From IMG/VR virus record IMGVR_UViG_3300033148_004307: a stretch of DNA of 64,000 nt; one strand, 5' to 3'. Each line of letters opens with the position of its first letter. The first letter of the stretch is position 1. This document shows positions 1,915 through 63,278 of this stretch, piece by piece. A model generated the notes under the pieces. The model was not told the origin of the DNA and searched no databases. It saw only the letters and a list, made by a program, of their open reading frames with translations. A program made the position numbers and the translations under genes. This DNA comes from an uncultured virus (IMG/VR IMGVR_UViG_3300033148_004307). Lineage: Duplodnaviria; Heunggongvirae; Uroviricota; Caudoviricetes.

Positions 1915-2880
1915 ATGCCACGAATGGAATCATTTGATGGAAAGAAAAAAACATCAGTAAAGGAACATGAAAGGAAAACAAAATCAGGGAAGAAAACCAC
2001 CGTAAAAAAGCACGATAGAAGATTAAATCCAAAGATGATAAACACATCTAAATTACAATCTATGGTCAGGCTAATAGGTGGGGATGCACATCTAAAAAGC
2101 AGAAAGAACCTAGAAGCAATTGCAGAGGATTGGTTAAAAATAGCTAATGATAAAGATAAAAATGCTATGATAAGAGTGATGCAATTAGATAAATTCCCTT
2201 ATGATGTAGGAGATTTCATTACTGTAAATGAGAAAGATGATGCAATCAGGAAAGGATATAAATTAGATGTGATAACATCACGACCCGACTCATTTAAAAT
2301 CGTAGGTAGAGAATTTCCAGCTATGGAGAGATATAAAGGAATGGAAGTATCAACAGTAGAAGATTCTCCAGATTACATGGGAAAATCTATTGAATTTAAA
2401 GATGGAAGTGAATATCTCATTTTTGATGATTTCGATATGGCAAAATCCGAAGCCTATTCAAAATTGAAAGATGATATAGAAAGAAATCCAAGTAAATATG
2501 ATAGGGATTCACTAATGAGGTCAGTAGATAAAGACGATTTGATAAGAAATTTATACTTCCATATCAAAAGCGATAGAGCATTTTATGATATATTCAAAGA
2601 TGAAGTGAAACCAAAAACCCAAGAACAATGGGATTCACATGAAGATTGGTCGCAATTAAAAGCCAATGAAATCTTTGGAACATCATCAGGTTATGATGAT
2701 TTAGCTAATTATGGAATAGATTGGAAGGAACAAATAGATAGTTGGGAAGTAGCTAATGGCATCATAGGTATTAATGGAGTCCACCAAGTATTGACAGGAA
2801 GAAAGAAAACTAAAGCTGGAGAAATAACAAAATTAAGAAATGGAAAGCACATATATCAAATCAGGATGGAGAGAAAATAG
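1915..2880 (+). CDS. Leader-family-1 protein, unknown body
   Basis: 321-aa ORF with the same leader and RBS. Confidence 0.85.
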   Translation: MPRMESFDGKKKTSVKEHERKTKSGKKTTVKKHDRRLNPKMINTSKLQSMVRLIGGDAHLKSRKNLEAIAEDWLKIANDKDKNAMIRVMQLDKFPYDVGDFITVNEKDDAIRKGYKLDVITSRPDSFKIVGREFPAMERYKGMEVSTVEDSPDYMGKSIEFKDGSEYLIFDDFDMAKSEAYSKLKDDIERNPSKYDRDSLMRSVDKDDLIRNLYFHIKSDRAFYDIFKDEVKPKTQEQWDSHEDWSQLKANEIFGTSSGYDDLANYGIDWKEQIDSWEVANGIIGINGVHQVLTGRKKTKAGEITKLRNGKHIYQIRMERK

Positions 2881-2931
2881 AATGGAAAAGTATTAGGCAC
2901 TACATATTAAAAGTAATGGAGAGGATTAGAA

Positions 2932-3606
2932 ATGCCAAAGTCAGAATCATTTGATGGAAAATGTAAAACTAAAGTAAGAGAACATGAGAGGAAAACACAA
3001 TCAGGAAATACTACTACAGTTAGAAAACATGATAGGACAATCAAATGCGAATCAGAATCAGATATGAGGTTAAATAGAAGTGGTTTTATAAACAGTTTAG
3101 GATGGAAAAAATCTGGTCGTAAAGTAGTAATGCCAAGAAAAGCCGACTCTGAATTATCATCTTTATTGGATGATTTATCAGTAAAATATGGCTTAGTAAG
3201 ACAAAATCTAACTAAAGAAGAATATGACAAAAGGATGTTATATTTGGTACATGAAACTTTAGAAGATGCTAATTATCACACTCCTAATAATAACCTTTTT
3301 GCAGAATTATTAGGTAGACCAGATTTAAAAGGAAGAACAAATTACGATACTGCCCCTAAAACTAAAAGTGGAAAGATAGATTTCGATTCAAAGGAATATG
3401 ATGAATGGTTTAATGAAAACACTATTTATGGAAAGAAATTTGAAGCAATCACATCAGAATTTGAAGGTTCTAATAATCTGGTACATGAACTTAACACCAA
3501 AGCAGAATGGGAAGGAACGAAATCGTTGGATGTAATATTGGATAAAATGAGAAAGGATGGAAGTTGTAAGTTGGCAAATGGAATACAAACATTATTTTAT
3601 GAATAA
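2932..3606 (+). CDS. Leader-family-1 protein, unknown body
   Basis: 224-aa ORF with the same leader and RBS. Confidence 0.85.
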   Translation: MPKSESFDGKCKTKVREHERKTQSGNTTTVRKHDRTIKCESESDMRLNRSGFINSLGWKKSGRKVVMPRKADSELSSLLDDLSVKYGLVRQNLTKEEYDKRMLYLVHETLEDANYHTPNNNLFAELLGRPDLKGRTNYDTAPKTKSGKIDFDSKEYDEWFNENTIYGKKFEAITSEFEGSNNLVHELNTKAEWEGTKSLDVILDKMRKDGSCKLANGIQTLFYE

Positions 3607-3636
3607 TGTTAGAATAGGCACTACAGGAATGATTCA

Positions 3637-3828
3637 ATGGTTAAAAAAAAAACGAATAGAAGTTTAATGGTTCTCGTATTGGTAGTTGGAATCATAGCAT
3701 TTCTTTTATCTCAATTGATTTTGGGAAATATTATTGTCGGAATATCAACATTAATAGAAAATATATCTTCAATTGTGATAAGTGTTGTAATTTCATATCT
3801 CGTAGTTTCGGAATTAAATAAGAAATAA
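3637..3828 (+). CDS. Small two-TM membrane protein
   Basis: Two hydrophobic stretches; follows motif A. Confidence 0.7.
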   Translation: MVKKKTNRSLMVLVLVVGIIAFLLSQLILGNIIVGISTLIENISSIVISVVISYLVVSELNKK

Positions 3829-3987
3829 TCAAATATCGAAAAATAGGCTACGAGAAACCTATCTTAATAGAACGAAAACAGGGAGAGCAATAATATGTAT
3901 CGGGGTGGGGTAAATAGCCTAAATACACCCCTTAAAGCCCTTTATTTATGGTATGAGCATCCATACATACATTTTATTTTTGTTGAA

Positions 3988-4040
3988 TAATGTATACACA
4001 AGTATTTAAACCTATAGCTATTATGATGTATACATTATAG
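3988..4040 (+). promoter_or_regulatory. Archaeal promoter (AAGTATTTAAA) flanked by two TGTATACA palindromes
   Basis: TATA-like box 4000-4010 in a 230-bp gap; TGTATACA at 3991 and 4027. Confidence 0.55.
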
Positions 4041-4059
4041 AGTATTGGGTGGTAATATT

Positions 4060-4452
4060 ATGAAGAATAAATTAATACATATTAAAAAATCGAAATTCAT
4101 AAAAGCACTAAAAAGAGAATTTCATAATGACGAATTTTTTAAAACAAAGGTTGATAAAATAGAGATTGAAGTAAGTAAAACAATAAATGGTAAAAAGACA
4201 ATCACACTAAATGCCTATGGACTTGATTTAAATGAAGAAACCAAAGAATTAAGGAAAGATGAACAAAGAAATCTTGATTACCATAGAAGATTATCATATA
4301 CTTTTATAGAGAAAGAAGAAAAATTAGCTCTGATTTATCATATAATTGCTTTGTTATGCGACCATGAGTTTGATTTAGCAGAATATTGGAACTACATATT
4401 GGAATATCCAGATGAATTAGTAGAATCAGAATACGATGATGATTTTGAATGA
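4060..4452 (+). CDS. Hypothetical protein
   Basis: ATG after GGTGGT RBS. Confidence 0.75.
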   Translation: MKNKLIHIKKSKFIKALKREFHNDEFFKTKVDKIEIEVSKTINGKKTITLNAYGLDLNEETKELRKDEQRNLDYHRRLSYTFIEKEEKLALIYHIIALLCDHEFDLAEYWNYILEYPDELVESEYDDDFE

Positions 4453-4464
4453 GGGGATGATATA

Positions 4465-5164
4465 GTGAATCCAAGAGAAAAATGCCATTCTCCAGAATGT
4501 GATGGTAAAACAGATATGTTTCCTCTATACTCAAGAGGTTATGATAATAAATTTAAAAGAGCAATAAAAGAAAGAATACATGAAAGGACAGGAGAAATAC
4601 AAATTAGTTATGGCTTTATCTGTCCTATCTGTAAGAAAATACATTTTAGAATGAGAAAGAAAAAGTGAAGTTTATAGACCTAGTGATAATTAGGCATTAC
4701 AAATATTATGGTGGTAATATGTCAGATATAATAGATAAAGAATATTTAGTTAAATTAAGAAATTCCAACCCATATTATGAGAAAATTTTTGTAGAACCAA
4801 CAAAAGAAGAATGGGATAAGCTGAATACAACATTGAATGAGAATGGATTGAAATGTTTAGATGGATATTCAGGCAGTATTGGTAGAAGGTCATGGAATAT
4901 GTGTTGTGATAAATTAGAGGAATTAATTAAGGGGGAATAAATATGGACAAAGAACAGGGATTTTTAATTTTACAAGTATACATCATTTTATTCAGTATAT
5001 CATTTTATATGTTTACTGATAATGCAGTATATTTGGTAGTAGGAATGGCAGTATTTATTGGAAATTATTTTGCAAAAGATAGCATAGAAAGGCAGATAAA
5101 AAAGAATGAAGAAAAGGAAAAGTTACTAGGCACTACAGAGGAAGATGAACCAAAGAAAGTGTGA
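4465..5164 (+). other. Three small hypothetical genes (4465-4668 Zn-finger, 4719-4940, 4943-5164 membrane)
   Basis: Abutting ORFs each with RBS. Confidence 0.7.
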
Positions 5165-6423: not shown

Positions 6424-6623
6424 CAAGTTGGTGGATTTATGAGTGGATGTATATGTGGTGGTCAACACCAATTAAAAGAATGGACAGATGAAGAAATTAG
6501 CAAACATATCGAAGATTCTATGGATGGTAGTTGCATTGATTGTTGGTGTGGTACGCCATTCAGAGTAAAAAATAAAGAAAACAATGGATAACAAATTGGG
6601 TTCATTGTAACAGAGGGATAAAT

Positions 6624-8410: not shown

Positions 8411-8641
8411 ATGAAAACAATGATAGTAAGAGGAAAGATTTTACAATACTTTGAGAAAGTACCTCACGCTGATACCTATGAATTATTAGACTTCATCAAT
8501 AGAAGCACTAAGCATGGAGTAACAACACAGGCTATTGGAAGTATTTTATCTAATATGGCAAAGCAGAAATTGATAGTAAAAATATCAAGCTATTCAAGAA
8601 ATAGTGTAGCTATCTGGGGAAGAAATAAGGAACAGGGATAA
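8411..8641 (+). CDS. Winged-helix protein, DUF3860-like paralog
   Basis: TYELLDFIN-x3-KHGVTTQAIGSILS aligns with 41939-42187. Confidence 0.6.
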   Translation: MKTMIVRGKILQYFEKVPHADTYELLDFINRSTKHGVTTQAIGSILSNMAKQKLIVKISSYSRNSVAIWGRNKEQG

Positions 8642-10813: not shown

Positions 10814-11521
10814 ATAGATAAAGAAACAAAAAAGGATAAAGGATTCTGGGTACAATATCATATTGAACGTAGAAATTCCGATAAAAAAGAATTTGGATAC
10901 AATTATTATCTATATGAAGATGGCTATAAAGAAGATGATGAAGAATCATTTAGATTGGAAGCTCAATCATGGGCAGAAAATGAAAAACAAATGTGGGCTA
11001 AAGATAGATATAGTTATGGATATGAAATTATAAAAGAAGCCCCAATTGATTATATTAATGAGAAAATAAAGGACACAATAAACGAATTAAAATATTGGTT
11101 ATCTTTCAATAAAAGTAATGAATATTATATGTTAAAATCCGATTTAGAACACTACGATAGAGAGAAAAAAAGAAAAGAATCATTTAAAGAAATTGAAAGT
11201 TGTAAATTTACAGATGAAGAATTAATGAAATTTGAAGATAATGACTATCCTGTGGGTAAGGATTGTTATCTTTGTATTTATGTAAATTGCCAACATAATA
11301 AAAAAAATTATAGAGAAAGATTTTCAGGTAAACATAAACACGATTCAGAATTTGATATAAATATGCCTGTATTAACATACAATGGGTGGGTACTTGGTAA
11401 TGAATGGGGTATATATTCAGCATATTGCGAAGAAACAAAACGATGGCTATCATTTGAATCAGAGGTTGAAATGGTATTCACAATAGACCTTTATATTCTT
11501 GCAGAAACAATAAGTGATTAA
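10814..11521 (+). CDS. Hypothetical protein; frame extends to an ATA at the canonical start position
   Basis: GGTGGTAAT-ATA at 10805-10816 is in frame with track ORF 10955-11521. Confidence 0.6.
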   Translation: MDKETKKDKGFWVQYHIERRNSDKKEFGYNYYLYEDGYKEDDEESFRLEAQSWAENEKQMWAKDRYSYGYEIIKEAPIDYINEKIKDTINELKYWLSFNKSNEYYMLKSDLEHYDREKKRKESFKEIESCKFTDEELMKFEDNDYPVGKDCYLCIYVNCQHNKKNYRERFSGKHKHDSEFDINMPVLTYNGWVLGNEWGIYSAYCEETKRWLSFESEVEMVFTIDLYILAETISD

Positions 11522-11536
11522 TTTAGGAGAAATAAT

Positions 11537-12040
11537 ATGCCGAAAGAACCACTAATGGAAGATGAATTTCAAAGAATCCTAAATTCATGCGAAAATGAAT
11601 TTGAAAAACAAACAATATTGATTTTAAGATACACAGGGATGCACATATCAGTTATTTGTGATAAAGAAAATGAATACGATATAGCATTTAAAGGTAAATA
11701 TATACATTGGTATAGACCAAAAACACATAATTTAGTAAGAATCCCAATACACCCAATCATTAAGCCATTCATCAAAGAATATTTTGAAAATGAGAGGGCT
11801 ATGTATAGAAATTATTACAATCGAATGATAACAGAAATAGGGAAAAGAGCAGAAATAGAAGGATTATCCCCTATGAGTTTTAGACATACTTTCGGAGTGG
11901 CATTATTGGATGAAGGGTACACAATGACTCAAGTACAAACAATGATGGGAGTAACAGATTTACAAGTGATTACAAGATATACTCAATACTCTGATAGACA
12001 AATGGAAGCAAAATGGAAAGATACAGGATGGTTAGAATGA
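11537..12040 (+). CDS. Tyrosine recombinase-like protein, catalytic domain only, atypical active site
   Basis: LRYTGMHISV, RPKT, MSFRHTFG, VQTMMGV-x5-ITRY. Confidence 0.85.
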   Translation: MPKEPLMEDEFQRILNSCENEFEKQTILILRYTGMHISVICDKENEYDIAFKGKYIHWYRPKTHNLVRIPIHPIIKPFIKEYFENERAMYRNYYNRMITEIGKRAEIEGLSPMSFRHTFGVALLDEGYTMTQVQTMMGVTDLQVITRYTQYSDRQMEAKWKDTGWLE

Positions 12041-13851: not shown

Positions 13852-13890
13852 TGGATAACAATAGTGGGTAATAGTAACAGATGTGGTAAT

Positions 13891-15135: not shown

Positions 15136-15159
15136 TTAGGCACTACAGGAGAGATATAT

Positions 15160-15654
15160 TTGAAAGCATATATACAAATTATGACAGAATCGAAGGAATT
15201 GTTGGATGAAATTAAATCAAAACTTGATGAAATTGAAGAAATTAAAATTTATAATGACGATATATTAGAGTTAAACCATGTAACAGATTTAAATAAAAAA
15301 ACTAACCAATATCATTTGACATACATGGGTAAATGTAATAGATATGATAGATATAAACTTGGGGATGAATTATTAATGGATAAGGAAATAGAAATTCTGC
15401 AAGTATTTAAAAGAATAGAAAAGGATTCCATCAATAACGAAATTAATACTTCAAATCCATATCTCAAAAATGATATTGAAAATAAATTAAAAGAACACAA
15501 ATTCAAAATTAACTATATCTCAGATTTGGTTAAGAAACACGATAAGAATTTTGATATTATAAAATATCAGATTAAATTATTAAACGAATATAAAAATATG
15601 TCAGATAATCCAGAATATTATGAAAAAGCTATTGAAGAATTAGAAAATAGTTAG
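15160..15654 (+). CDS. Hypothetical protein
   Basis: TTG start after RBS; bounded by motif A on both sides. Confidence 0.7.
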   Translation: MKAYIQIMTESKELLDEIKSKLDEIEEIKIYNDDILELNHVTDLNKKTNQYHLTYMGKCNRYDRYKLGDELLMDKEIEILQVFKRIEKDSINNEINTSNPYLKNDIENKLKEHKFKINYISDLVKKHDKNFDIIKYQIKLLNEYKNMSDNPEYYEKAIEELENS

Positions 15655-15962
15655 GCACTACATGGTGGTAATATGGAAGAAAAAGAAAGGTAGATTAAAT
15701 GAAAACTATAGAAGTAACAGATGAATTTTATAGCACTTTAAAAGCTATGATGAAATTTAAATACGAAGGTAGTTGTACACACGTTTTGAAATGTATGATT
15801 AATGATAATGGTAATTATAGTTTCAAAGTGCATATAAATATAAAAAAACATGATAGAATGAAAAATCATTTTAGAACTTTATAGAGAAAACAGTTCTTAC
15901 ATCCTAAATATGAGTGTAAGAATGAAAAAGAAAATAATAGTTAGGTATAACATTGTGGTAAT

Positions 15963-16418: not shown

Positions 16419-16832
16419 AATGAAAGAAAGTTATGAGAGAATTAAAGAATTACATCTAAATTATGAAGGATTATCAAATAGGGAGAAATTATTATTCCTA
16501 AATAAAACAGGATTAAAGGAGAAATAACTAGGCACTACATGGTGGTAATATGGAACAAAAAGAATTAATTAATAAATTTATAAAATATTTAAAATTCTAT
16601 CACAGATTAGATTTAAAAGAGGTCGAGATAACTGATTCTAGGGGCTATTGGAGAATAATAAAAGAATGTAAGGGGGAATGTAGAGAGGGTCATAGACAAC
16701 CGATTAATCACACTATTTATTATGTAGATGGTGGTAGAGATTCAAAAGGTAGATTTGAAACCCCCTATAAAACATGGAAATTAATCAAATCAATGGATAA
16801 CAAACGAGGGCAATAGTAACAAAGGTGGTAAT

Positions 16833-29017: not shown

Positions 29018-30409
29018 ATGAGTTATTTTAGAGTAAAGAAAATAAAGAAGCATGGGAATATTTACACTTACTATTATCTGGTCGAAGGTTATCGAGATAA
29101 AGAAGGAAAGGTAAAGCAAAGAGTATTGGAATATTATGGCACTAATAAACCAGAAGGATATAAACCAAAAGGAAAGAAGAAAATGAAAGTCAAAGTAGGC
29201 ACTACAAAGAAAAAAGAACCAATCAAGAGAACTGAACTAACAGATGAAGAATCAGATTTCTTAGAAGAAACGATTGATGATGATAATGAAGAATTTAAAG
29301 ACCAAATGAAAGAAGAAATTGATGATTTGAAATATGAAATGAAAGAAGAAATTGAGGATGTATTTGAAGGACTCAAAGAATCCTGTAAAGAAGAATTAGA
29401 TTATCTCAAAGACCAATTTAAAGATAAAGAAATTGACAAAGATTGTTATGAGGAAGAAAAAGAAGCACACAAACAAGCACTTAAAGATGATATTGTATCA
29501 GAAAGGGATAGAATCAAAGAAGAATATCAAGAATCCTTCCAAGAAATTAAAGATAAATATAAAGATAAATTGGAAGAAAGAAGAAAGGAATTGAAACAAG
29601 AAATCTTAGATGGTAAACACGAAGAACAAATGACTAGAGAAAATAAAGAGATGGAAAAAGAATATGAAGAACGACAGAAAGCACAATCAAAAGATATACT
29701 AGGCACTACAAAAGAAGTTAGTTTTAAGGATTTAAACGATAAAGAAAAATTAGTATTGGCAGAGCTTGAAGAATCAGCAAAAGAACAGGGATATGATTTC
29801 GGAATTACAGAGGATGTAGATGGAAAGAAATTAGGAATGACAGGAAAACAAATATCAGGATACATTAGCCAATTAGTACAAAAAGGATATATACAATCAT
29901 ATCCAGAGGATAAACAAAAGGGATTCACACAATTTGAGTTCAATGATAAATATTGGATGGCAAAGGCAAAACAAAGAACCCCACTAACATCCCCAATAGA
30001 GTATTGGGAGAATCAAATTGAAGAATTGAAAGAGGAATCAGATAAGTATGGGAAAAAGGAAGTAAGGATAAGATTACCAGAGGCAAAACGTATTAAAAAA
30101 TTGTTAGACTCTGGAAAACCACCAATCAATGAGGGTCAAAAACCAAAAGGATTCGATAAACTGTGGAAAGAGGGGATTAAGAAATATCCAGAATTAGAAT
30201 ATGTTACACATATTAACATCAAACCTAGTAAAGAAATGTTAGGTGGATTGGGATTAGCTAATGTCGATTTTTCTGGAAATAGAGTTGAATTTAATATCAA
30301 TGAAGAAATCAAAACACCTGAATCAATAATGCAACAATTTGAACATGAATCTAAGCACATTAAAGAATACATCGTAGGAAAAGAAATAACACATAAAAGA
30401 AGATACTAG
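29018..30409 (+). CDS. Leader-family-2 modular protein: beta-rich N-domain, acidic coiled coil, wHTH, HExxH domain
   Basis: YYYLV-x3-R-x3-GKVKQ-x4-YYG; QISGYISQLVQKGYI; FEHESKH. Confidence 0.75.
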   Translation: MSYFRVKKIKKHGNIYTYYYLVEGYRDKEGKVKQRVLEYYGTNKPEGYKPKGKKKMKVKVGTTKKKEPIKRTELTDEESDFLEETIDDDNEEFKDQMKEEIDDLKYEMKEEIEDVFEGLKESCKEELDYLKDQFKDKEIDKDCYEEEKEAHKQALKDDIVSERDRIKEEYQESFQEIKDKYKDKLEERRKELKQEILDGKHEEQMTRENKEMEKEYEERQKAQSKDILGTTKEVSFKDLNDKEKLVLAELEESAKEQGYDFGITEDVDGKKLGMTGKQISGYISQLVQKGYIQSYPEDKQKGFTQFEFNDKYWMAKAKQRTPLTSPIEYWENQIEELKEESDKYGKKEVRIRLPEAKRIKKLLDSGKPPINEGQKPKGFDKLWKEGIKKYPELEYVTHINIKPSKEMLGGLGLANVDFSGNRVEFNINEEIKTPESIMQQFEHESKHIKEYIVGKEITHKRRY

Positions 30410-30435
30410 GCACTACACTTTAGGAAGGGAATGTT

Positions 30436-31908
30436 ATGAGTTATATTAGATATAAGGAAAAAGCTGGAATTAAGTATTATTATCAAGTTAAAAGTGTGAG
30501 GGAAGGGGATAAGGTAATTCAAAAACACATCAAGTATTGGGGTACTCTAAAGCCTACAGATAAGCAAACAAAAGAAGTAGATGAATTATTCAAGAAAAAT
30601 AGAAAATCAGAGATTAAAAAGAAAGCTAAACCAAAGAAAAAGAAATTGCAATATCCAATATCTCAGATTGATAAGAAATATGACAAATATATCAGCAATC
30701 ATTATTTTGATGAAATGGGAGTAACAGTTAGAGATATAAAAGGACATGGATTAAATATAGAGGGAGTAGATTCAGGTTTAGCAGTAGCATTATTTGAACT
30801 GAATAGAAATGGGTTCAAATCAATGCAATCAATGTCAGGATTGAAAGAAGATTATCAGGGTAAAGGAAAAGAGAGATATTCAGATAATGGTTATATTGCA
30901 TTTCTCAAACAAGAAAACAATTTTTCAGAATTAAGGGTAATTAAAAGTATAGCCGAAGAATCAAAATTACCATATTCCGAAGGGGCTATTTTCGGAATAC
31001 CATCAGTAGAAGTGAGAACAGGAATAACTAATGCTGGAGTATCAACTAATCAAGTTAGAATTGAAGCTGGAAAACAGGCTATGGATAAAATGGGTATCCC
31101 AGAGGAAGAAAGAATTGTTAGCGAACCAAGTATATTTTTCCCTGAAAAAGACCCAAATGATAAATCTCCAAAAGATAGAACAATATTTTTGGATTGGATT
31201 CATCAAAGAGATAAGTTAGAAGAAAAAATAACAGAAAATTATGGTGGAAATATCTCTGATGATGAAATCAAAAAAAGGTGGAAGATATTTACTGATAAAT
31301 TAGTTGAATTTAGGAGAAATAATCAACTAAATAAAGAACAAATCTTAGAAGAATTAAAGGAAAAGAAATTGTATTCTAAAGAAACTCAACCAGAAGTAGA
31401 TAAAGAATACAAAAGAACAATATATTACGATTCAATATCAGAAAATGAAGATGAAATAGCAATCAAATCAGATAAATGGTGGATGCACAGAGTTTTTAAT
31501 GATATGAAAACATTAGGAATGGATACAAGATTAGATGAAAAGAATCAAACGATTAGCTTTAAGAAATTCAAAGAATTAGGCATTACAAATAAGAAGAAAT
31601 TACCCTTCAAAGTTACAGAAAAAAGACAAAAAATGGAAGATAATACAGGAAAACAAATTAAAAACTACTTCGATAAATATCGTGGAAATAAATATTATTC
31701 ACAAATTAAAATACAAACTCCCCAGATAAGAAATATGTTTGATACATTAAAATCGAGTAATGAATACGATAAAAGAAAAGTATCTGAAGGAAATTATACT
31801 TCAAGAGGACAAATAGGAGAATATCTTATTAGATATGATGATAGAAAATTCAGAGTTTATCAACCAAAAAATAGCGAATATTATGAAATAGAAGAAATTG
31901 ATTATTAG
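30436..31908 (+). CDS. Leader-family-2 modular protein
   Basis: MSYIRYK...YYYQVKSVREGDKVIQKHIKYWG. Confidence 0.8.
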   Translation: MSYIRYKEKAGIKYYYQVKSVREGDKVIQKHIKYWGTLKPTDKQTKEVDELFKKNRKSEIKKKAKPKKKKLQYPISQIDKKYDKYISNHYFDEMGVTVRDIKGHGLNIEGVDSGLAVALFELNRNGFKSMQSMSGLKEDYQGKGKERYSDNGYIAFLKQENNFSELRVIKSIAEESKLPYSEGAIFGIPSVEVRTGITNAGVSTNQVRIEAGKQAMDKMGIPEEERIVSEPSIFFPEKDPNDKSPKDRTIFLDWIHQRDKLEEKITENYGGNISDDEIKKRWKIFTDKLVEFRRNNQLNKEQILEELKEKKLYSKETQPEVDKEYKRTIYYDSISENEDEIAIKSDKWWMHRVFNDMKTLGMDTRLDEKNQTISFKKFKELGITNKKKLPFKVTEKRQKMEDNTGKQIKNYFDKYRGNKYYSQIKIQTPQIRNMFDTLKSSNEYDKRKVSEGNYTSRGQIGEYLIRYDDRKFRVYQPKNSEYYEIEEIDY

Positions 31909-32119
31909 GCACTACAATAAAATAACCTTCCCTACAAATCTCTACTCGTAAATAACAATCTAAATAGCCATAAGATAATATTTATATCATTCAGGATACC
32001 GAATTATAATGTATACATCATCCCCTCATGGTGTATACATCAAACCCCCTTTTTTTTGTTATCAAAACTATAGTAAAATACCAAATAAGCCGAATAATGA
32101 TTTTAGACAAGCACAAACT

Positions 32120-32278
32120 ACGCAAAAAATTTTTAAGCGAAGCCTAAAATTTTTTTGCGTTTAATCCATTTTTTCCGACACGCATGGCGTTTTTGCCATG
32201 CGTGTTATTTTTTTATTTATGTGCCTTTAGGCACACCTCTAAGGGCATTACGGTATTTTCGATGCCTATCGAAAATAC
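32120..32278. repeat. Four consecutive hairpins
   Basis: 32120-32160, ACACGCATGGC/GCCATGCGTGT 32178-32205, GTGCCT/AGGCAC 32221-32234, GTATTTTCGAT/ATCGAAAATAC 32253-32278. Confidence 0.85.
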
Positions 32279-33378: not shown

Positions 33379-33779
33379 CTGTTCGGTCTTATATAATTCT
33401 GGTTACTGTTCGGTCTTTTTACTGTTCGGTCTTTTTTTACTGTTCGGTCTTTTTAGCATCTGGATAACTGTTCGGTCTTTTTTACTGTTCGGTCTTTTTT
33501 TACTGTTCGGTCTTTTTAGCATCTGGGTACTGTTCGGTCTTTTAGCATCTGGATAACTGTTCGGTCTTTTTTACTGTTCGGTCTTTTTACTGTTCGGTCT
33601 TTTTTACTGTTCGGTCTTTTTAGCATCTGGGTACTGTTCGGTCTTTTTAGCATCTGGATAACTGTTCGGTCTTTTTTACTGTTCGGTCTTTTTACTGTTC
33701 GGTCTTTTTAGCATCTGGATAACTGTTCGGTCTTTTTTACTGTTCGGTCTTTTTACTGTTCGGTCTTTTTACTGTTCGG
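33379..33779. repeat. Iteron-like array: 20 copies of ACTGTTCGGTCT(T)n with six AGCATCTGG(AT/GT)A inserts
   Basis: Directly visible; ends about 60 bp before the Rep-like start. Confidence 0.95.
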
Positions 33780-33842
33780 AATCAAAAAATTATATATAGT
33801 AGAAAAAATATTGCAAAATTAACACCAATTGAGTGATGTGCG

Positions 33843-35432
33843 ATGATTGATGGTAATGAAATATTGGCAGATAAAGAAATTTATCTTGGTTGCCCTGTCC
33901 AGCATAAATTACATTTTCATAAATTCATTGAGAATAAAGATTTGTATTATCAGATGATTAAAAAATACATATCTTGTAAAGATGAACCACATTATGAAGA
34001 TGGACAAAAGAATGGTTATGAATTTTATGTAGGGGAACACAAATTCGTTTTCAAATCTAAGAAAGGAATATCCAATAGGAAATATGGAAATGGAAAATTA
34101 ATGCAGAATTTTGAATACACTTTCAAGTTAGAATATCCTGAAGGATTACCCAAATCAGAAACATTAGAAAAAGCATACATCTTATTTAAGCCATATAGTG
34201 AAGATTTCTATTATAAGGATGGTAAACCTCTTAAATTACCTTATGGAGAGGGAGTTGGGATTGAAATAGTTACTACATACAAAGAAATGAAGGATGTAGA
34301 TGTATTAGTGAGAAAAATACTAGAACATCTACAATTAGAGGAATTTCTTGAGTATGAAAATGTCGAATCTGGAGTAATAAGACAATGTGAATATTATGTT
34401 AGAGTGGATGATGAATATGAAGCTAGATTAGGAAATGTATTAAGAAAAATTGATGAAACAATATGCCTCTCAACCGATGTTTTTAGAAAAGTAACTGAAA
34501 AGAGAAATGGCACTAAATACAATTTATATTCCATCAGGTCTAATCAATTCAATGAATTAGGATTCTTCAATAATGATGGAAAAATAAGATATGGAATAAA
34601 ATTATATAGATTAAAGGATGATAGCAAATTAGAAGAAAATGACCCAATTAGACAACCTAAATTAGAAATCTATCTCGATGAACAGAAAAAAGATGATTTT
34701 CTTAAACTTGAATATCCCAGATTAGATGATTTCAGCAAATTGAAAGAAACAATGTTTCAAATATTGGGCAATATTCTACTATGGGCATCTGTACTTGAAG
34801 ATGGTTTGGTTCAAGATAAATTTTACGACCCAAAGAATGATGATAAATTCCTAGTACAACCCAAAAAAAATGCCTTTCAAAAGCTAAAGAATTTCTACGA
34901 GAGAGCAGAACCAAAATTAAGAAGTGAGTTGAGTCAGTTAGTATCAAAGGTTGATTATCTTAGAGCATTGGTACACGATGAAAATATAAATTATAACAAA
35001 TTAATGGAAAAAACAGGATTGGGTTATGAACGAATAAGAAAAATGACCAAAGAATTAGAAGATGATGGAATACTGAGCAGATTTAAAACCTCAGAAACCA
35101 AGATAGTATTCAAGAATAAAAAAGCCTACAAAATGATGAAAACTATGGTTAGACAATTGGATGCTGACCACAAAGAAAATAAACATACGAAAAAGAAACG
35201 ATTAATGACTAGAATCTCTAGCAGATTAAAAGCATGGAGAAAGAGAGTAGAAAGCAAAGAAGTTCCATTAGATAGTAAATTAGCTAAAATCCTATACAGA
35301 TTCAAAATATTAAAAGAAACAGATGTTGATTTCATAAATATAACGACTTTTAAAACAATGAAACAAAAACCACCACCTGAGTATTACAAGACAATGTTTT
35401 CTGATGGGCAGTTATCCGAAGGGTTTATATAG
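33843..35432 (+). CDS. Putative replication initiator with C-terminal wHTH, similar to the Rep-like family of betapleolipoviruses/haloarchaeal plasmids
   Basis: Ordered motifs GEGV, IRQCEYYVRVD, FRKV, GIKLY, DPIRQPKL, LVQDKFY, then wHTH (TGLGYERIRKMTKELEDDGIL); adjacent iterons. Confidence 0.65.
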   Translation: MIDGNEILADKEIYLGCPVQHKLHFHKFIENKDLYYQMIKKYISCKDEPHYEDGQKNGYEFYVGEHKFVFKSKKGISNRKYGNGKLMQNFEYTFKLEYPEGLPKSETLEKAYILFKPYSEDFYYKDGKPLKLPYGEGVGIEIVTTYKEMKDVDVLVRKILEHLQLEEFLEYENVESGVIRQCEYYVRVDDEYEARLGNVLRKIDETICLSTDVFRKVTEKRNGTKYNLYSIRSNQFNELGFFNNDGKIRYGIKLYRLKDDSKLEENDPIRQPKLEIYLDEQKKDDFLKLEYPRLDDFSKLKETMFQILGNILLWASVLEDGLVQDKFYDPKNDDKFLVQPKKNAFQKLKNFYERAEPKLRSELSQLVSKVDYLRALVHDENINYNKLMEKTGLGYERIRKMTKELEDDGILSRFKTSETKIVFKNKKAYKMMKTMVRQLDADHKENKHTKKKRLMTRISSRLKAWRKRVESKEVPLDSKLAKILYRFKILKETDVDFINITTFKTMKQKPPPEYYKTMFSDGQLSEGFI

Positions 35433-35492: not shown

Positions 35493-35981
35493 ATGAGTAC
35501 AGAAAAAACGATTGAACAAAAGGAAATCGTAGTTGAACGTACACATCCAGAAGTATTGGATAAGATGTACGATTTTTATACAGAAAACTATGGGTATTTT
35601 ATCCATAAAGCCCAAATGGATGGACTTGGTATTAAGCCAACAACAATGAATAATTTTAATGGAAATAAAAGAATGGCTAAAGGCAAATCATTTAAGCCAA
35701 TAACCAGAAAAAGAACATTCACTCCAAGAATACCAAAAGCACTTCCCCCAAAGGTAGCATTTCTTAAAAAAGAATTTAAATTTGTCATATCCAAAGCATA
35801 CAAAGAATGTGCAAATGAATACAAATATTATCAAAAAGCAGAAAATTGGATTAATGCACATCAAAAACTTACTGATTGGGAAAGAAAACAAATCTATGGA
35901 TATAGAATGTATGGGGAGAGCATTTTAGTAGACATTATTGAGAAAACAGGAAATACATTCAGATTAATGGATGAGGCATAA
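35493..35981 (+). CDS. Hypothetical protein
   Basis: 162 aa, GGTGGT RBS. Confidence 0.75.
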   Translation: MSTEKTIEQKEIVVERTHPEVLDKMYDFYTENYGYFIHKAQMDGLGIKPTTMNNFNGNKRMAKGKSFKPITRKRTFTPRIPKALPPKVAFLKKEFKFVISKAYKECANEYKYYQKAENWINAHQKLTDWERKQIYGYRMYGESILVDIIEKTGNTFRLMDEA

Positions 35982-41938: not shown

Positions 41939-42187
41939 ATGAAAACCCAGAGAATACGAGAAAAAGTAAAAAAGTATTTGGAAGATGGGGCTAAAAGCAC
42001 TATTGAGATTCTTGATTATATTAATGATAACTCACGACATGGAACTACGTGTCAGCAATTGGGAAATGTACTATCCAAAGATAGAGATATTGTTAAGGTA
42101 GGACTTGTTAAACGTGGGGCTATCACATCAGGTACTTACAATATTTGTGAATGGGCATTAAAAGATAAAAATACGTATACCTTATAA
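41939..42187 (+). CDS. DUF3860-like winged-helix protein
   Basis: RHGTTCQQLGNVLSKDRDIVKVG...ICEWA, recognisable from Thermoplasmata proteins. Confidence 0.75.
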   Translation: MKTQRIREKVKKYLEDGAKSTIEILDYINDNSRHGTTCQQLGNVLSKDRDIVKVGLVKRGAITSGTYNICEWALKDKNTYTL

Positions 42188-46010: not shown

Positions 46011-46421
46011 ATGAATAAGAAATTATTAAAAATATTGTATATCTCTGATGATTTTAGTGATTCCTCATGGAAAATGTATAAAGAAAACATATTCGAGGGG
46101 GATTATTTCTATTCTGAAGAATCAAACACACATAACTTTGATGCAGAATTAGTTAAAACAATTAGTGATGGACTAATTAAAACTAAGAGCAATAAATATG
46201 ATTTTGTATTGGTCGATTATGGATTAATCGGAAATGAAAGAAAAGAATTTAGAAAATTAATCAATAAGGAATTTGTGATTTTAACAGGGGCATTAGATAG
46301 GCACTACATTAAGAACGATTTGGAAAATAGCCCTTATGATTATCCAGAATTAGATATTGTTAGTTTCAATTCAGATGAAGTTATTGGAGATTTATATCAT
46401 ATTTTGAGAAAATTAAAGTGA
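46011..46421 (+). CDS. Stand-alone response-regulator receiver-like protein
   Basis: ILYISDD, YDFVLVDYGL, VILTG. Confidence 0.6.
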   Translation: MNKKLLKILYISDDFSDSSWKMYKENIFEGDYFYSEESNTHNFDAELVKTISDGLIKTKSNKYDFVLVDYGLIGNERKEFRKLINKEFVILTGALDRHYIKNDLENSPYDYPELDIVSFNSDEVIGDLYHILRKLK

Positions 46422-47454: not shown

Positions 47455-47474
47455 TGGATAACAAAGGTGGTAAT

Positions 47475-49011: not shown

Positions 49012-49055
49012 ATTAAATATAGAAGAATAATTTAATGGATAACAAAGGTGGTAAT

Positions 49056-52308: not shown

Positions 52309-52587
52309 ATGAGTAATGGCTATAAAAGAACAATAAGGCATATAAATATTCTAATGTCAGATGGAAAAATCAGGCATACAATGGAGATTTACGACTACTT
52401 AAAAGTGAATACAAAATATGGGGCTACGACTCAATCATTAGCTAATATATTAGCCAAATTAATGTTTAAAGATATTGAGAAGGTAGGCACTACAAAAGTA
52501 AAATCTTTCTATGGTGGTAATGGACTATTGGCATTATGGCAAAAGAGAGGAGTGGATAAATATGGGTCAAAGAAAAAAGATTCCTGA
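52309..52587 (+). CDS. DUF3860-like paralog
   Basis: TMEIYDYL-x3-TKYGATTQSLANIL...IEKVG. Confidence 0.55.
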   Translation: MSNGYKRTIRHINILMSDGKIRHTMEIYDYLKVNTKYGATTQSLANILAKLMFKDIEKVGTTKVKSFYGGNGLLALWQKRGVDKYGSKKKDS

Positions 52588-54549: not shown

Positions 54550-56928
54550 ATGAGTTATATTCGATTTAAAACAGATAAAAATACAGGAAAGAAATACTAT
54601 TATCAAGCAAAAACTGTAAGAGTAGGTAAAAAGGTAGTTCAAAAACATATCAAATATTGGGGTACTGAAGAACCTACTAAAATTCAAATGGCTAAAGTGG
54701 ATGAACTATACAAGAAAGGTAAATTAGAAGAAATCAAAAAGAAACCATTAACTACCAAAAAGAAGATGAAACTGTATCCAACAAAAACAGAAATTAACTA
54801 TATTAAAGGTAAAGGATATTACGGTAGAGTATCATTGGTAGGGCATCCAAATAATGTGGGATACCTCACAGATTATTTCACTAAGGAAAGTAAAGCTAAA
54901 TCAGAAACAAAAAAACTTGAATCTAATTATCGAAAAAAATACGAAAAAAGTAAAACCCCAAAAGTAAGAGAAGAAAAAGAAGATTATTCAGGATGGGATA
55001 GAGAAAATATTGCTAAAGACATAATAACATTTTTTGATAAATCTGGGGAAGTAGAGATTACAGTAGCTAAATTGAATGAGGGTAAATGGGAAGTAAACCC
55101 ATCTACAATTATATTCGAAACAAAGACATTCAAAACCAAAAAAGAGGCTATGGATTATGCTAAAGCAGAAATGAAGAAAAATACTCAAATCAAAAAGAAA
55201 GAACCAAAGAAACCGAAGGAAGAATATGACCCTAAAAAAGACCCAAAAAGAATAGCACAGGATAAGGCAGAAAATAGATTTGTGGACTTATTACATGAAA
55301 GACCTGAATTATCAGCAAAAGATGTAGAATCCATAAATCAGGCATTATCAAAAGGAAAAACAAAAGAAGCAAACAAATTAATAGATAATTTATCAAAGAA
55401 ACCTATCCAAAAACAAAAGGATGAACCATTGTATGACCCTACAAGTTTAAGGTCAAGTAAAGATTGGAATTATCTCTTTACTGAAGTAGATGAAGGATTC
55501 CAAGATGGAAAAACATTAAAACAGATGAAAAAGGAATTAACAGATGTATTTTTTGATGAAGAAATAATTAAAATGTATAATCGTTTAGCAGAAAATTATG
55601 ATAAAGAGAAAATAAAAATGCCAATACTTAAAAAAGTAGCTAAAACAAGATATGAAATAGCTAGAGAAAAAGAAGAATTGGGTAAAACATTAACAAAAAC
55701 AGATATTAAGGCGTTATCAAATTATGCTGAATATTCAGGAATAAATTTAAACAGAGAAATTGAATTAGCTGATGAAAGTATAAAAACATTAGAAGATTCA
55801 CTCAAGAGTCCAAGATATAAAGATGATAAGGAATCACAAAAGAGAGCAAAGAATAATTTATCTATTGCTAAAATTAAAAGAGAATTAGTCATGGAAGAAA
55901 TGGAAAAAAGAAAGAAGAAAGAATCTAAATTACCAAAAAGTGATTTTGTAAGCGATAGGTTAAGAAGAATAAATAGACCTTCATCAACGTGGGCTAATGT
56001 GGATGATATTGATATAGATAGATTATATCATGGGGCAAACAATATATATTCTGACCCAGAGGGAGTAGCAATTAGCACACAAAATGATTATGTTGAACAT
56101 ATTGATGCAGTAGCTACAAATTTAATAAGAATAGCAGAAACCCCAGAGCAGAAAAAAGTAGCAGAGGAAGAAATAAAGAAGTACAAAGATGGCTACATTA
56201 AAAAGTTCTTAGCGAAAATTGATGCAGATTCAAGAGTAGCATCCCCATTCATTACAGGGGGTTCAAATTTCCCAAAAAGACAGATGGAAAAAAGAAATGC
56301 TACCTCTCAAAAAAGATATGATGAATTTGAAGAATATAAAAACAAAGCATTACCAAGAGCTAAAAGAAATGTTGAAAAGGCATTTACAGGGGAAATATCA
56401 CAGAGAGAATTTGAAATATTAAAGAAAAGTGCCAATACAGATTTAGAGGTAGTTCAGGGTATTGATGAAAAGAAAGACAGATATAGAGGATTTACTAGAA
56501 GTGCATTTGTGAATAGTTTAGGTGGAAAACTTGAAAGACAATTGAGAAATGGGAATGTAGCATTGGTAGAAAAAACTCTTGAATATGTTAAACAAGAGGA
56601 AGAAACAAGAGGAATGAAAAAACCAATATTCACAAAAAGACATGGCATATTCAAAAAGCTAGAGAAAGCCAAAACCCAAGAACCTACAGTAAAACCTACA
56701 GGAATAATACCGTTAAAGGATTATGTAGGTGTATCTGTTGTAAATAACAATGATGAAGATAGAGTCCAATTATTATTTGATGAAAAACCTACAGAGGAAA
56801 TAAGAAGAAAACTAAAAAGTAATGGATTTCATTGGAGTAATAAAAATGAGGCATGGCAAAGAAAGAATACACAAAATGGGATTTCCACATCAAAATGGAT
56901 ATTAGACGATTTCTTCAAAGAAAGCTAG
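54550..56928 (+). CDS. Leader-family-2 large polyvalent-like protein
   Basis: MSYIRFK...YYYQAKTVRVGKKVVQKHIKYWG; SRVASPFITGGSNFP and RVQLLFDEKP...LKSNGFHWS-x4-AWQR motifs typical of MGE polyvalent proteins. Confidence 0.75.
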   Translation: MSYIRFKTDKNTGKKYYYQAKTVRVGKKVVQKHIKYWGTEEPTKIQMAKVDELYKKGKLEEIKKKPLTTKKKMKLYPTKTEINYIKGKGYYGRVSLVGHPNNVGYLTDYFTKESKAKSETKKLESNYRKKYEKSKTPKVREEKEDYSGWDRENIAKDIITFFDKSGEVEITVAKLNEGKWEVNPSTIIFETKTFKTKKEAMDYAKAEMKKNTQIKKKEPKKPKEEYDPKKDPKRIAQDKAENRFVDLLHERPELSAKDVESINQALSKGKTKEANKLIDNLSKKPIQKQKDEPLYDPTSLRSSKDWNYLFTEVDEGFQDGKTLKQMKKELTDVFFDEEIIKMYNRLAENYDKEKIKMPILKKVAKTRYEIAREKEELGKTLTKTDIKALSNYAEYSGINLNREIELADESIKTLEDSLKSPRYKDDKESQKRAKNNLSIAKIKRELVMEEMEKRKKKESKLPKSDFVSDRLRRINRPSSTWANVDDIDIDRLYHGANNIYSDPEGVAISTQNDYVEHIDAVATNLIRIAETPEQKKVAEEEIKKYKDGYIKKFLAKIDADSRVASPFITGGSNFPKRQMEKRNATSQKRYDEFEEYKNKALPRAKRNVEKAFTGEISQREFEILKKSANTDLEVVQGIDEKKDRYRGFTRSAFVNSLGGKLERQLRNGNVALVEKTLEYVKQEEETRGMKKPIFTKRHGIFKKLEKAKTQEPTVKPTGIIPLKDYVGVSVVNNNDEDRVQLLFDEKPTEEIRRKLKSNGFHWSNKNEAWQRKNTQNGISTSKWILDDFFKES

Positions 56929-57167: not shown

Positions 57168-57649
57168 AACCAGATAAATAATATAATTCATTGAATATTT
57201 ATTTATATTAGAAAAAACATTACATAATTCGATGAAACTTTTTGAAAAAAAAGCAGATAAAGAAGCTAAAAAATCATTCTTTGAAGGAAAAGGTAAAACT
57301 ATAGAAATATGTGTAAGTTGTCGAAAGCACTATGAAAGGATAAATGAAGTTAGAGAAATTTGTCATAGATGCACTAGAATGTTTACTAAATTAATCAATC
57401 ATGTAAAGAAACATGGAACAGATATATGTGATTATTATTAATTATAAAATCATTTCTTATTTTGAACAATCGTTAAATATAGGGCATATAGGGGGTTTTT
57501 AGGCATTTTACCCCTACCCTATATAAAATATAGCACAACCCGATTATGACTTGATAGAGGGATTTATAGAGCATTAAATGAGAATAATTATCGGTAAAAC
57601 CAAATCCGATAAGAAAAAACTAAATATTATGTAGTGCCTAATATCAAAT

Positions 57650-62573: not shown

Positions 62574-63278
62574 ATGGTAGGCACTACAAAAAATGATACA
62601 AATCAAATCCAAGAAAGAACAGTAGTGAAAACTACAGAAAAATTCAGATTATTCTCTAAAGCATTTAAATGGTTTTTTATAGTGGTATTTTGTATTATCG
62701 GACTTTATATATTATTCTTAATATTCGGTGGTTATATATTTGGAAGTTTCTTTGTTTCAATTATCATATCATCCATTGTACTTTACAACACAATCACTGT
62801 ACCATCAGAAAGATTTGTTGAAAGCAGAATGGAAGAAAGTTTTGATGATGATGGGAATAGTGAGGGTATAACCCTCTTATTCAATGAATATGATATTCCT
62901 GTAGATTTATTGAAGGAATTTGGATTAACAGGAGATAACCAAAATGGAAAATGGAAAAGTAAAAATGGCAAATCAAGAGAATTAGTAGAAAAAATTGATT
63001 TCATCAATAGGAAAATTAAGTATTCGTGGTTTGCAGAATATTCTACATGGAAATTTATGGTTGACAAAGCAACATTATTAAGTTTAAATGAAACAGTAGC
63101 TAGGAGTCAGAGAGATTTAATGCGAAGCCCAGAAATTGAAGTTATAAGATTACAAGAAATCTCCTTAAAAGAACAAAAAGAAATGTCAGATAATCCAGAT
63201 GGTTATGATGATGCTTTAACAGAAGTGTCCAAAGATTTAACACGAACTAGGGGGAAGTTAAAAGATGATAAAAGATGA
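62574..63278 (+). CDS. Two-TM protein with cytoplasmic domain and coiled-coil tail
   Basis: Hydropathy by eye. Confidence 0.75.
   Translation: MVGTTKNDTNQIQERTVVKTTEKFRLFSKAFKWFFIVVFCIIGLYILFLIFGGYIFGSFFVSIIISSIVLYNTITVPSERFVESRMEESFDDDGNSEGITLLFNEYDIPVDLLKEFGLTGDNQNGKWKSKNGKSRELVEKIDFINRKIKYSWFAEYSTWKFMVDKATLLSLNETVARSQRDLMRSPEIEVIRLQEISLKEQKEMSDNPDGYDDALTEVSKDLTRTRGKLKDDKR

Follow-up and report, generated by a model that had tools for sequence, protein, structure and literature searches.

A repeated 11-nucleotide word before genes of an uncultured virus: likeness to a phage polymerase promoter and in-frame copies within proteins

Introduction

Promoters of T7/SP6-class single-subunit RNA polymerases occur as many near-identical copies that are oriented with the genes and lie just upstream of them, with ~17–23 conserved bp, a fixed +1, and a family-type sequence with a CACTA core. 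Among them, Table 2 of one review lists TAGGCACTACAATA for the 877-aa RNA polymerase encoded by Escherichia phage ECBP5 (Gajwadongvirus), with Xu et al. 2020 cited for the entry (PMC11617373). Repeated promoters have also been connected with gene exchange: the promoter-early stem-loop (PeSL) cassettes described in the T4-type phages RB49 and phi1 set a repeated promoter between small genes without assigned function, where it supplies possible homology for modular exchange (Arbiol et al. 2010, PMC2839356). Here, we describe an 11-mer, Motif A (TAGGCACTACA), that recurs along a 64,000-nt stretch (the window) of an uncultured virus assigned to Caudoviricetes (IMG/VR record IMGVR_UViG_3300033148_004307), where it stands in front of genes and, at several places, in frame within them. 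Integron arrays offer a further comparison, being built from cassettes that are each followed by an attC-type imperfect inverted repeat and accompanied by an integron integrase.

An earlier note on this DNA had regarded Motif A as a linker that joins protein domains as well as genes. We find that it is first of all a gene-start signal. On balance, and with a little more confidence than doubt, we take it to be the gene-start signal of this element, most likely a promoter of a T7/SP6-class single-subunit RNA polymerase, with copies inside open reading frames (ORFs) kept where the protein tolerates them.

Results

Motif A in front of genes

Allowing one mismatch or none, Motif A matches the window 59 times (58 on the + strand, 1 on the −) against 0.43 expected, a count reached by none of 100 shuffled sequences. 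Forty-seven of these matches are exact, and 12 carry one mismatch. When two mismatches are allowed, only 9 further sites appear, with ~8 matches in all expected by chance; given that two-mismatch sites stand at chance level, decayed copies are absent and the motif is either intact or not present. Conservation is sharply limited to the 11 nt. A weak A-A-T precedes the motif, nothing is preserved further out, and neither a conserved flank nor a hairpin was found around the 11-mer. The base following the 58 + strand copies is G in 22 cases, A in 19, T in 16, and C in 1.

According to our own gene calls, which are heuristic and rough, a start codon lies 0–49 nt after the motif end in at least 47 of the 58 + strand copies, mostly at a distance of 10–19 nt, and the copies at 15137 and 39863 also precede starts within that range when the listed ORF starts are used. 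About half the genes have Motif A before them. It lies immediately 5′ of the ribosome-binding site (RBS), which fills the spacer to the start codon as GGTGGTAAT, GGAGAGG, or GAGGGAT. In two cases (28019 and 28867), the ATG directly abuts the motif. Toward the upstream gene, the motif's own TAG serves as the stop codon in 21 cases, out of 51 TAG stops, and ORFs that run through the motif use the frame xTA GGC ACT ACA, which reads [L/I/V]-G-T-T. Five small genes do end in this manner, as the earlier note had reported, with tails of 0–8 residues beyond G-T-T rather than the 1–9 it had given. Most copies are untranslated. GGC makes up 6.7% of Gly codons, with 9 of the 55 GGC codons falling in the motif, and seven of the nine G-T-T tripeptides in called genes are motif-coded; the rare codon and the motif-coded tripeptide together indicate that the in-frame peptide mirrors a DNA motif and not a protein motif.

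Three further observations concern these junctions. Genes without Motif A often carry a second fixed junction, RTAACA-RR-KGTGGTAAT-ATG, found between positions 6607 and 50105 of the window with 18 matches at up to two mismatches against 1.8 expected (e.g., 13874–13890, 16816–16832, 47458–47474, and 49039–49055). Its TAA is often the upstream stop codon, its ACA end is common to Motif A, and the whole looks like a conserved stop/RBS/start joint for coupled translation. The segments 15652–15698 and 16529–16575 are identical at 24 of 25 nt after the motif and bear no likeness before it; after the copy at 15652, the RBS, the ATG, and the opening codons of gene 16550 recur but break off at a stop as a 6-codon stump, after which a different gene (15699) begins. 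This arrangement suggests that pieces consisting of a promoter plus a start get copied. The only − strand copy faces a noncoding stretch of ~200 nt (57445–57640) with short inverted repeats. An antisense guide RNA expressed from that copy was considered and rejected, its fold (z-score −0.86) being no better than that of shuffled sequences.

Likeness to T7/SP6-class promoters

Motif A is identical at 11 of 11 positions to the first 11 nt of the ECBP5 promoter as listed, and by the table of the same review it has 7 of 11 bases in common with T7 positions −11 to −1 and with SP6, including the CACTA core (PMC11617373). The core is that of T7, T3, and SP6, and the TAGG is that of SP6 and KP32. In the ECBP5 genome (KJ749827.1), we located 4 exact and 3 one-mismatch copies, all intergenic and on the + strand, each followed by ATAGG or ATAGA; one lies 71 nt before the capsid gene, and the RNA polymerase gene occupies 1961–4594. 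As in that class, the copies in the window are many, near-identical, and co-oriented, with 58 of 59 on the coding strand and 47 of those 58 just upstream of called starts.

A number of points weigh against assigning Motif A to this class. The ECBP5 promoter is a listing and not a mapped start, given that PhageProm found no promoter in ECBP5 and PHIRE predictions scored low in the results reported for that phage (PMC11880802). No homolog of an RNA polymerase was detected in the 64-kb window by Pfam on 131 ORFs or when the ECBP5 enzyme was used as the phmmer and tblastn query, and three large window ORFs searched against PDB likewise returned no RNA polymerase. Only 11 nt are conserved in place of ~17–23 bp with a fixed +1: the AT-rich −17 to −13 segment and the TATA at −4 to −1 of T7-type promoters are not retained, no fixed ATA follows, and G comes after the motif in only 22 of 58 copies. 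With 58 copies in 64 kb against the ~13 per genome reported for T7-like phages, the sites are about four times denser, and several lie deep in ORFs. For the copies at 29196, 29700, 31577, and 62578, the next 150 nt downstream contain no start codon, a placement that promoter use does not account for. The element also departs from Autographiviridae in its 29% GC content, its length of at least 78 kb, and its archaeal-type replication protein; both that DUF7845 protein and the recombinase described below look archaeal, and we know of no T7-type polymerase in archaeal elements.

Copies within coding sequence

The 463-aa ORF at 29018–30409 holds two exact copies, which are in frame and read V-G-T-T (29196) and L-G-T-T (29700), as the earlier note had found. 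AlphaFold2, run on the single sequence, returned a model with a mean predicted local distance difference test score (pLDDT) of 53.6 that is confident for the coiled coil only. It comprises three strands in residues 2–40, an unstructured stretch at 41–75, helices at 76–135 and 141–227 (pLDDT ~90), a break at 228–240, and a winged-helix-like part of low confidence thereafter. The sole family match of the protein, a weak one, is to phrog_3502 (winged-helix) at residues 231–305, and the domain borders used here are those of this low-confidence model and this one PHROG match. The copy at 29196 lies 19 residues past the end of the N-domain in a Lys-rich tether; in the model, both copies fall in predicted linkers that bracket the coiled-coil module. 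The two tethers comprise 48 of the first 240 residues, and by rough arithmetic the chance of both copies falling there is ~0.04. Neither copy is followed by an RBS or an in-frame start codon. No window paralogs were found for segments of the protein except for the N-domain, and PDB sequence searches with the N-domain profile and the C-terminal part were uninformative, as was hydropathy computed in windows at the motif sites. Reading of the TAG at 30407 as an amino acid was rejected, as the frame meets a TGA 10 codons on.

Other in-ORF copies extend the picture (Table 1). The variant that the earlier note had read as LGIT at 31577 is L381-G-I-T384 of the 490-aa ORF; over 14 nt (TAGGCATTACAAAT), it is the same at 14 of 14 positions as two intergenic copies (4691 and 24822), which marks it as a true family member and no chance match. 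The copy at 52484 lies in an ORF that matches DUF3860 (PF12976) at residues 13–77 (E = 5.5e-5; 23.5 bits, short of the gathering score, 27). Its paralog at 41939–42187 matches the family with a Pfam E value of 9.6e-26 and PDB entry 2OD5 with an E value of 3.9e-29. Aligned with this paralog, V59-G-T-T62 falls on the family's conserved K-V-G-x-x-K, 15 residues ahead of a Trp that is likewise conserved, and the DNA reads AAG GTA GGC ACT ACA AAA against AAG GTA GGA CTT GTT AAA in the paralog. ORF 52309–52587 overlaps the next gene by 68 nt (52520–52587), and the copy sits at the normal promoter position, over the family's K-V-G within a conserved domain. By this alignment, it is written over the domain and not set at a junction, a counter-example to boundaries-only placement. 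An AlphaFold2 model of this 91-aa ORF was uninformative (pLDDT 54). Three DUF3860 paralogs (solved structure 2OD5) occur in this one element, at 8411–8641, 41939–42187, and 52309–52587. The 136-aa ORF 46011–46421, with a copy in another frame, is likened by Atlas to receiver domains, which we treat as a lead only. The five in-ORF copies that do not lie near a gene end all match the motif exactly, and the residue after G-T-T is Lys in four of the four exact in-ORF copies in that frame. The placement of the motif at domain boundaries, as the earlier note had it, thus holds for the two linkers of the 463-aa protein but not for 52484, which the DUF3860 match spans, or for 46298, which is mid-ORF.

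Table 1. Motif A copies and associated features, in window coordinates
Feature	Position	Strand	Description
463-aa ORF	29018..30409	+	N-domain (~aa 1–41), Lys-rich tether, coiled-coil module (aa 76–227), winged-helix-like part (from aa 231), C-terminal part
Exact motif copy	29196..29206	+	GTA GGC ACT ACA = V60-G-T-T63; disordered tether after N-domain
Acidic coiled-coil module	29207..29699	+	One exact motif copy on either side, at a spacing of 504 nt
Exact motif copy	29700..29710	+	CTA GGC ACT ACA = L228-G-T-T231; break between coiled coil and winged-helix part
Motif copy	30407..30417	+	TAG is stop of 463-aa gene; 18 nt before ATG at 30436
490-aa ORF	30436..31908	+	Same N-domain; no motif after that domain
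Variant TAGGCATTACA	31577..31587	+	L381-G-I-T384 of 490-aa ORF
Motif copy	31906..31916	+	TAG is stop of 490-aa gene; no gene behind, points into iteron region
Exact motif copy	46298..46308	+	Other open frame (R-H-Y), ~residue 97 of 136-aa ORF 46011–46421
Exact motif copy	52484..52494	+	V59-G-T-T62 inside DUF3860 domain of ORF 52309–52587; 25 nt before ATG at 52520
Exact motif copy	62578..62588	+	V2-G-T-T5, directly after ATG of ORF 62574–63278
Motif copy	57630..57640	−	Only − strand copy; in noncoding stretch
Read-through 3′ tail	5127..5137	+	G-T-T then 8 residues
Read-through 3′ tail	9515		G-T-T then 2 residues
Read-through 3′ tail	18252		G-T-T then 6 residues
Read-through 3′ tail	18790		G-T-T then 0 residues
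Read-through 3′ tail	22208		G-T-T then 1 residue
Terminator-like hairpin	32177–32206	+	13-bp stem plus T run; closes + strand gene block after last motif copy (31906)
Iterons	33390–33780		~25 direct copies of ACTGTTCGGTCTTTTT, just upstream of the DUF7845 gene
529-aa DUF7845 plus winged-helix protein	33843–35432		Probable replication initiator

Relatives of the N-domain

ORFs 29018, 30436, and 54550 have in common a three-strand N-domain of ~40 residues, contained in the first ~45 codons and described by the pattern M-S-Y-x-R-x-K ... Y-Y-Y-x-V ... K-V-x-Q ... Y-x-G; neither Pfam nor PDB yielded a match to it. What follows on relatives is protein-level evidence throughout. A phmmer search with residues 1–66 against 1.84 billion representatives yielded 40 hits including the query, of which a repeat protein (P0004) was set aside, leaving 38. 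In these public data, the N-domain is found by itself, as tandem copies, and in fusions with many unrelated partners. Eighteen of the 38 hits are 80 aa or shorter, and for P0013 (59 aa, on contigs of up to 19 kb) a complete stand-alone N-domain is plausible. The expectation that domains of such proteins exist elsewhere as separate genes is therefore borne out for the N-domain but not for residues 229–463, for which no stand-alone shorter homolog was found among 162 candidates at E ≤ 0.01.

Two relatives, P0002 (361 aa, on a 5,755-bp contig) and P0003 (148 aa), repeat the order of N-domain, Lys-rich tether, L-G-T-T, and coiled coil. Their coiled coils have no significant similarity to that of the window, the likeness being lost after L-G-T-T, and x-G-T-T is kept despite N-domain identities of 49–62% and differing tethers. 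When P0002 is compared with P0008, residues 1–39 align with 1–40 at 70% and residues 130–242 with 53–165 at 50%. Between these blocks, P0002 has ~76 extra residues with I-L-G-T-T at the start and K-L-G-I-K at the end; the segment is missing in P0008, whose junction lacks a motif peptide. The 792-aa protein encoded at 54550–56928 joins the N-domain to a primase-like C-terminus (phrog_19458), and its 68% identical ortholog on a 23.5-kb contig, P0043, lacks residues 280–463; public data thus contain an element related to this one. No motif peptide stands at the borders of this 184-residue indel, and no motif follows the N-domain of the 490-aa or 792-aa protein. The proposal that proteins are assembled at the motif finds a possible case in the P0002 segment, which starts at I-L-G-T-T, but none in these latter junctions. 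Across 39 N-domain relatives (4084 aa), [GS]-T-T occurs 16 times against 1.3 expected, in six proteins, some with three to six copies; a word of this kind may also lie in frame in related elements.

The surrounding element

The window has coding almost wholly on the + strand. In a protein collection, the contig reported for the 463-aa protein is 78,015 bp long, so that the element extends ~14 kb or more beyond the window. Most window ORFs lack any family match (Pfam on 20 + 111 ORFs; PHROG), and an Rfam scan gave no matches for known RNA families. The iteron array and the DUF7845 protein are probably the replication origin and its initiator. Neither the DUF7845 gene nor the next gene (35493–35981) is preceded by Motif A. 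An Atlas link for the DUF7845-type family names a "homolog to HGPV1-ORF14," with ~90% archaeal members, again a lead only. Two adjacent ORFs (10955–12040) encode a tyrosine recombinase with its catalytic part in 11537–12040; the gene may be split or mis-called, and the fragment is closest to archaeal XerA, with a score of 52 bits where the cut-off is 220.

Searches of IMG/VR, JGI metagenomes, GTDB genomes, INPHARED, and PLSDB turned up no DNA of a relative. Twenty-four loci retrieved by a motif-plus-RBS pattern were treated as chance matches, with a single motif copy in each. MT835776.1 was also set aside as a relative: only a primase-like piece is common to both, its GC content is 52%, and it holds no motif copy within one mismatch.

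Discussion

Under the promoter reading, transcripts would start at or just after the last A of the motif because the RBSs and the two abutting ATGs would otherwise be lost. In so compact a genome, many copies overlap the ORF before them, and the motif then either supplies the TAG stop or is read through as [L/I/V]-G-T-T, the one frame that is comfortable. The two copies in the 463-aa protein (29196 and 29700) would be full, maintained signals inside a modular DNA-binding protein, located in disordered tethers because four fixed residues are harmless there, so that the link to domain borders would be mainly a tolerance filter. The absence of decayed copies, together with the retention of x-G-T-T in relatives, argues that in-ORF copies are maintained DNA signals and not neutral scars. 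They stand in tethers and tails, at an N-terminus, and in a wing on top of a V-G that was already there, as a tolerance filter predicts, and the alternative offered in the earlier note, that sites are simply tolerated in flexible linkers, fits at least as well as assembly of proteins at the motif. From the sequence, we infer that the motif works as a promoter, where transcripts start, and that internal copies are active. For copies that lie 725–1229 nt before the next start codon, our guess is that they add to transcription of the 490-aa gene and of the origin region beyond.

Motif A could instead be a recombination joint at which exchange moves and fuses genes, with the 463-aa protein composed of an N-domain, a coiled coil, and a winged helix joined at two motifs; we consider this unlikely, though it deserves a serious hearing. 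It would resemble the promoter-mediated modular shuffling of T4-type phages, for which the PeSL cassettes, as described, are the precedent (PMC2839356). The bracketing of the coiled-coil module by two exact copies speaks for it, as do the unrelated coiled coil after L-G-T-T in P0003, the occurrence of the N-domain alone in proteins such as P0013, and the copies that are homologous on one side only (15652 and 16529, with the 6-codon stump). The ~76 residues that P0002 has beyond P0008 also begin at a motif peptide, as an indel bounded by a cassette would, yet the P0008 junction lacks that peptide, the case is a single one at the protein level like all evidence from relatives, and the P0043 indel and the N-domain junctions of the 490-aa and 792-aa proteins are without the motif. 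The copy at 52484 differs from its paralog by substitutions within a domain, with no junction. Neither a stand-alone coiled coil nor a homolog of residues 229–463 was found in the window or among shorter proteins, and the in-frame copies show no trace of an RBS or ATG after them. Eleven nucleotides are short for homologous exchange. Where PeSL cassettes join a promoter to a terminator stem-loop, Motif A has no stem-loop partner, no conserved flank, and no sigma-70 hexamers, and it is only 11 nt long and also translated. Integron cassettes share with the window small genes on one strand, a repeated site after each, and a tyrosine recombinase; they were rejected as a model, as no inverted repeat of attC size was found and the XerA-like recombinase, far below cut-off, is 17 kb away. 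Under the promoter reading, too, the coiled-coil module between the two copies may have arrived as a promoter-flanked piece, with the protein-level P0002 indel as the evidence.

Action of the motif on RNA, as a cleavage site that makes single-gene messages or as a binding site for a translational regulator 5′ of the RBS, seems to us improbable. It would account for the tight coupling to the RBS at 10–19 nt from the start codon, it requires no polymerase gene of the kind that the window failed to yield, and the genes without Motif A carry the RTAACA junction plus GGTGGTAAT at the same place in the excess given above. Cleavage at the sites inside ORFs (29196, 29700, 46298, 52484, and 62578), which are conserved in relatives, would, however, destroy messages; the copy at 31906 has no gene after it, the motif lacks a hairpin or conserved flanks, and the exact identity to a listed phage-polymerase promoter would be left unexplained. 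Least credible, and very hard to sustain, is selection on the peptide [L/I/V]-G-T-T-K itself, for example, as a protease or modification site, with the DNA identity secondary. The invariant Lys after the exact in-ORF copies of that frame and the excess of [GS]-T-T in N-domain relatives, concentrated though it is in six proteins, are what such selection would produce. Against this, the peptide in the window is spelled each time by the full 11-nt motif, rare GGC included, seven of the nine G-T-T tripeptides are motif-coded, and most copies are never translated.

The promoter reading can be carried further into a scenario that we offer as speculation and think improbable as a whole: a virus or plasmid, 78 kb or longer and equipped with a replication protein and recombinase of archaeal type, would run about half its genes from a T7/SP6-class promoter, with the polymerase encoded outside the window or supplied in trans, which would be the first such use outside bacterial podoviruses and organelles. 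The same 11-mer would also be the joint for swapping coiled-coil and DNA-binding modules, leaving conserved in-frame promoters in linkers.

If Motif A is a T7-type promoter, it would place transcription by a single-subunit polymerase in a new setting, an almost wholly unannotated element that may be archaeal, and it would supply a natural minimal promoter of 11 nt. The window illustrates how a fixed regulatory word is fitted into coding DNA, as a stop codon, a C-terminal tail, a tether, and the conserved V-G of a domain. Should tolerance be the whole explanation, this would be an ordinary result of genome compaction; conservation in relatives would make it a case of promoters embedded in a gene, possibly with module exchange at promoters.

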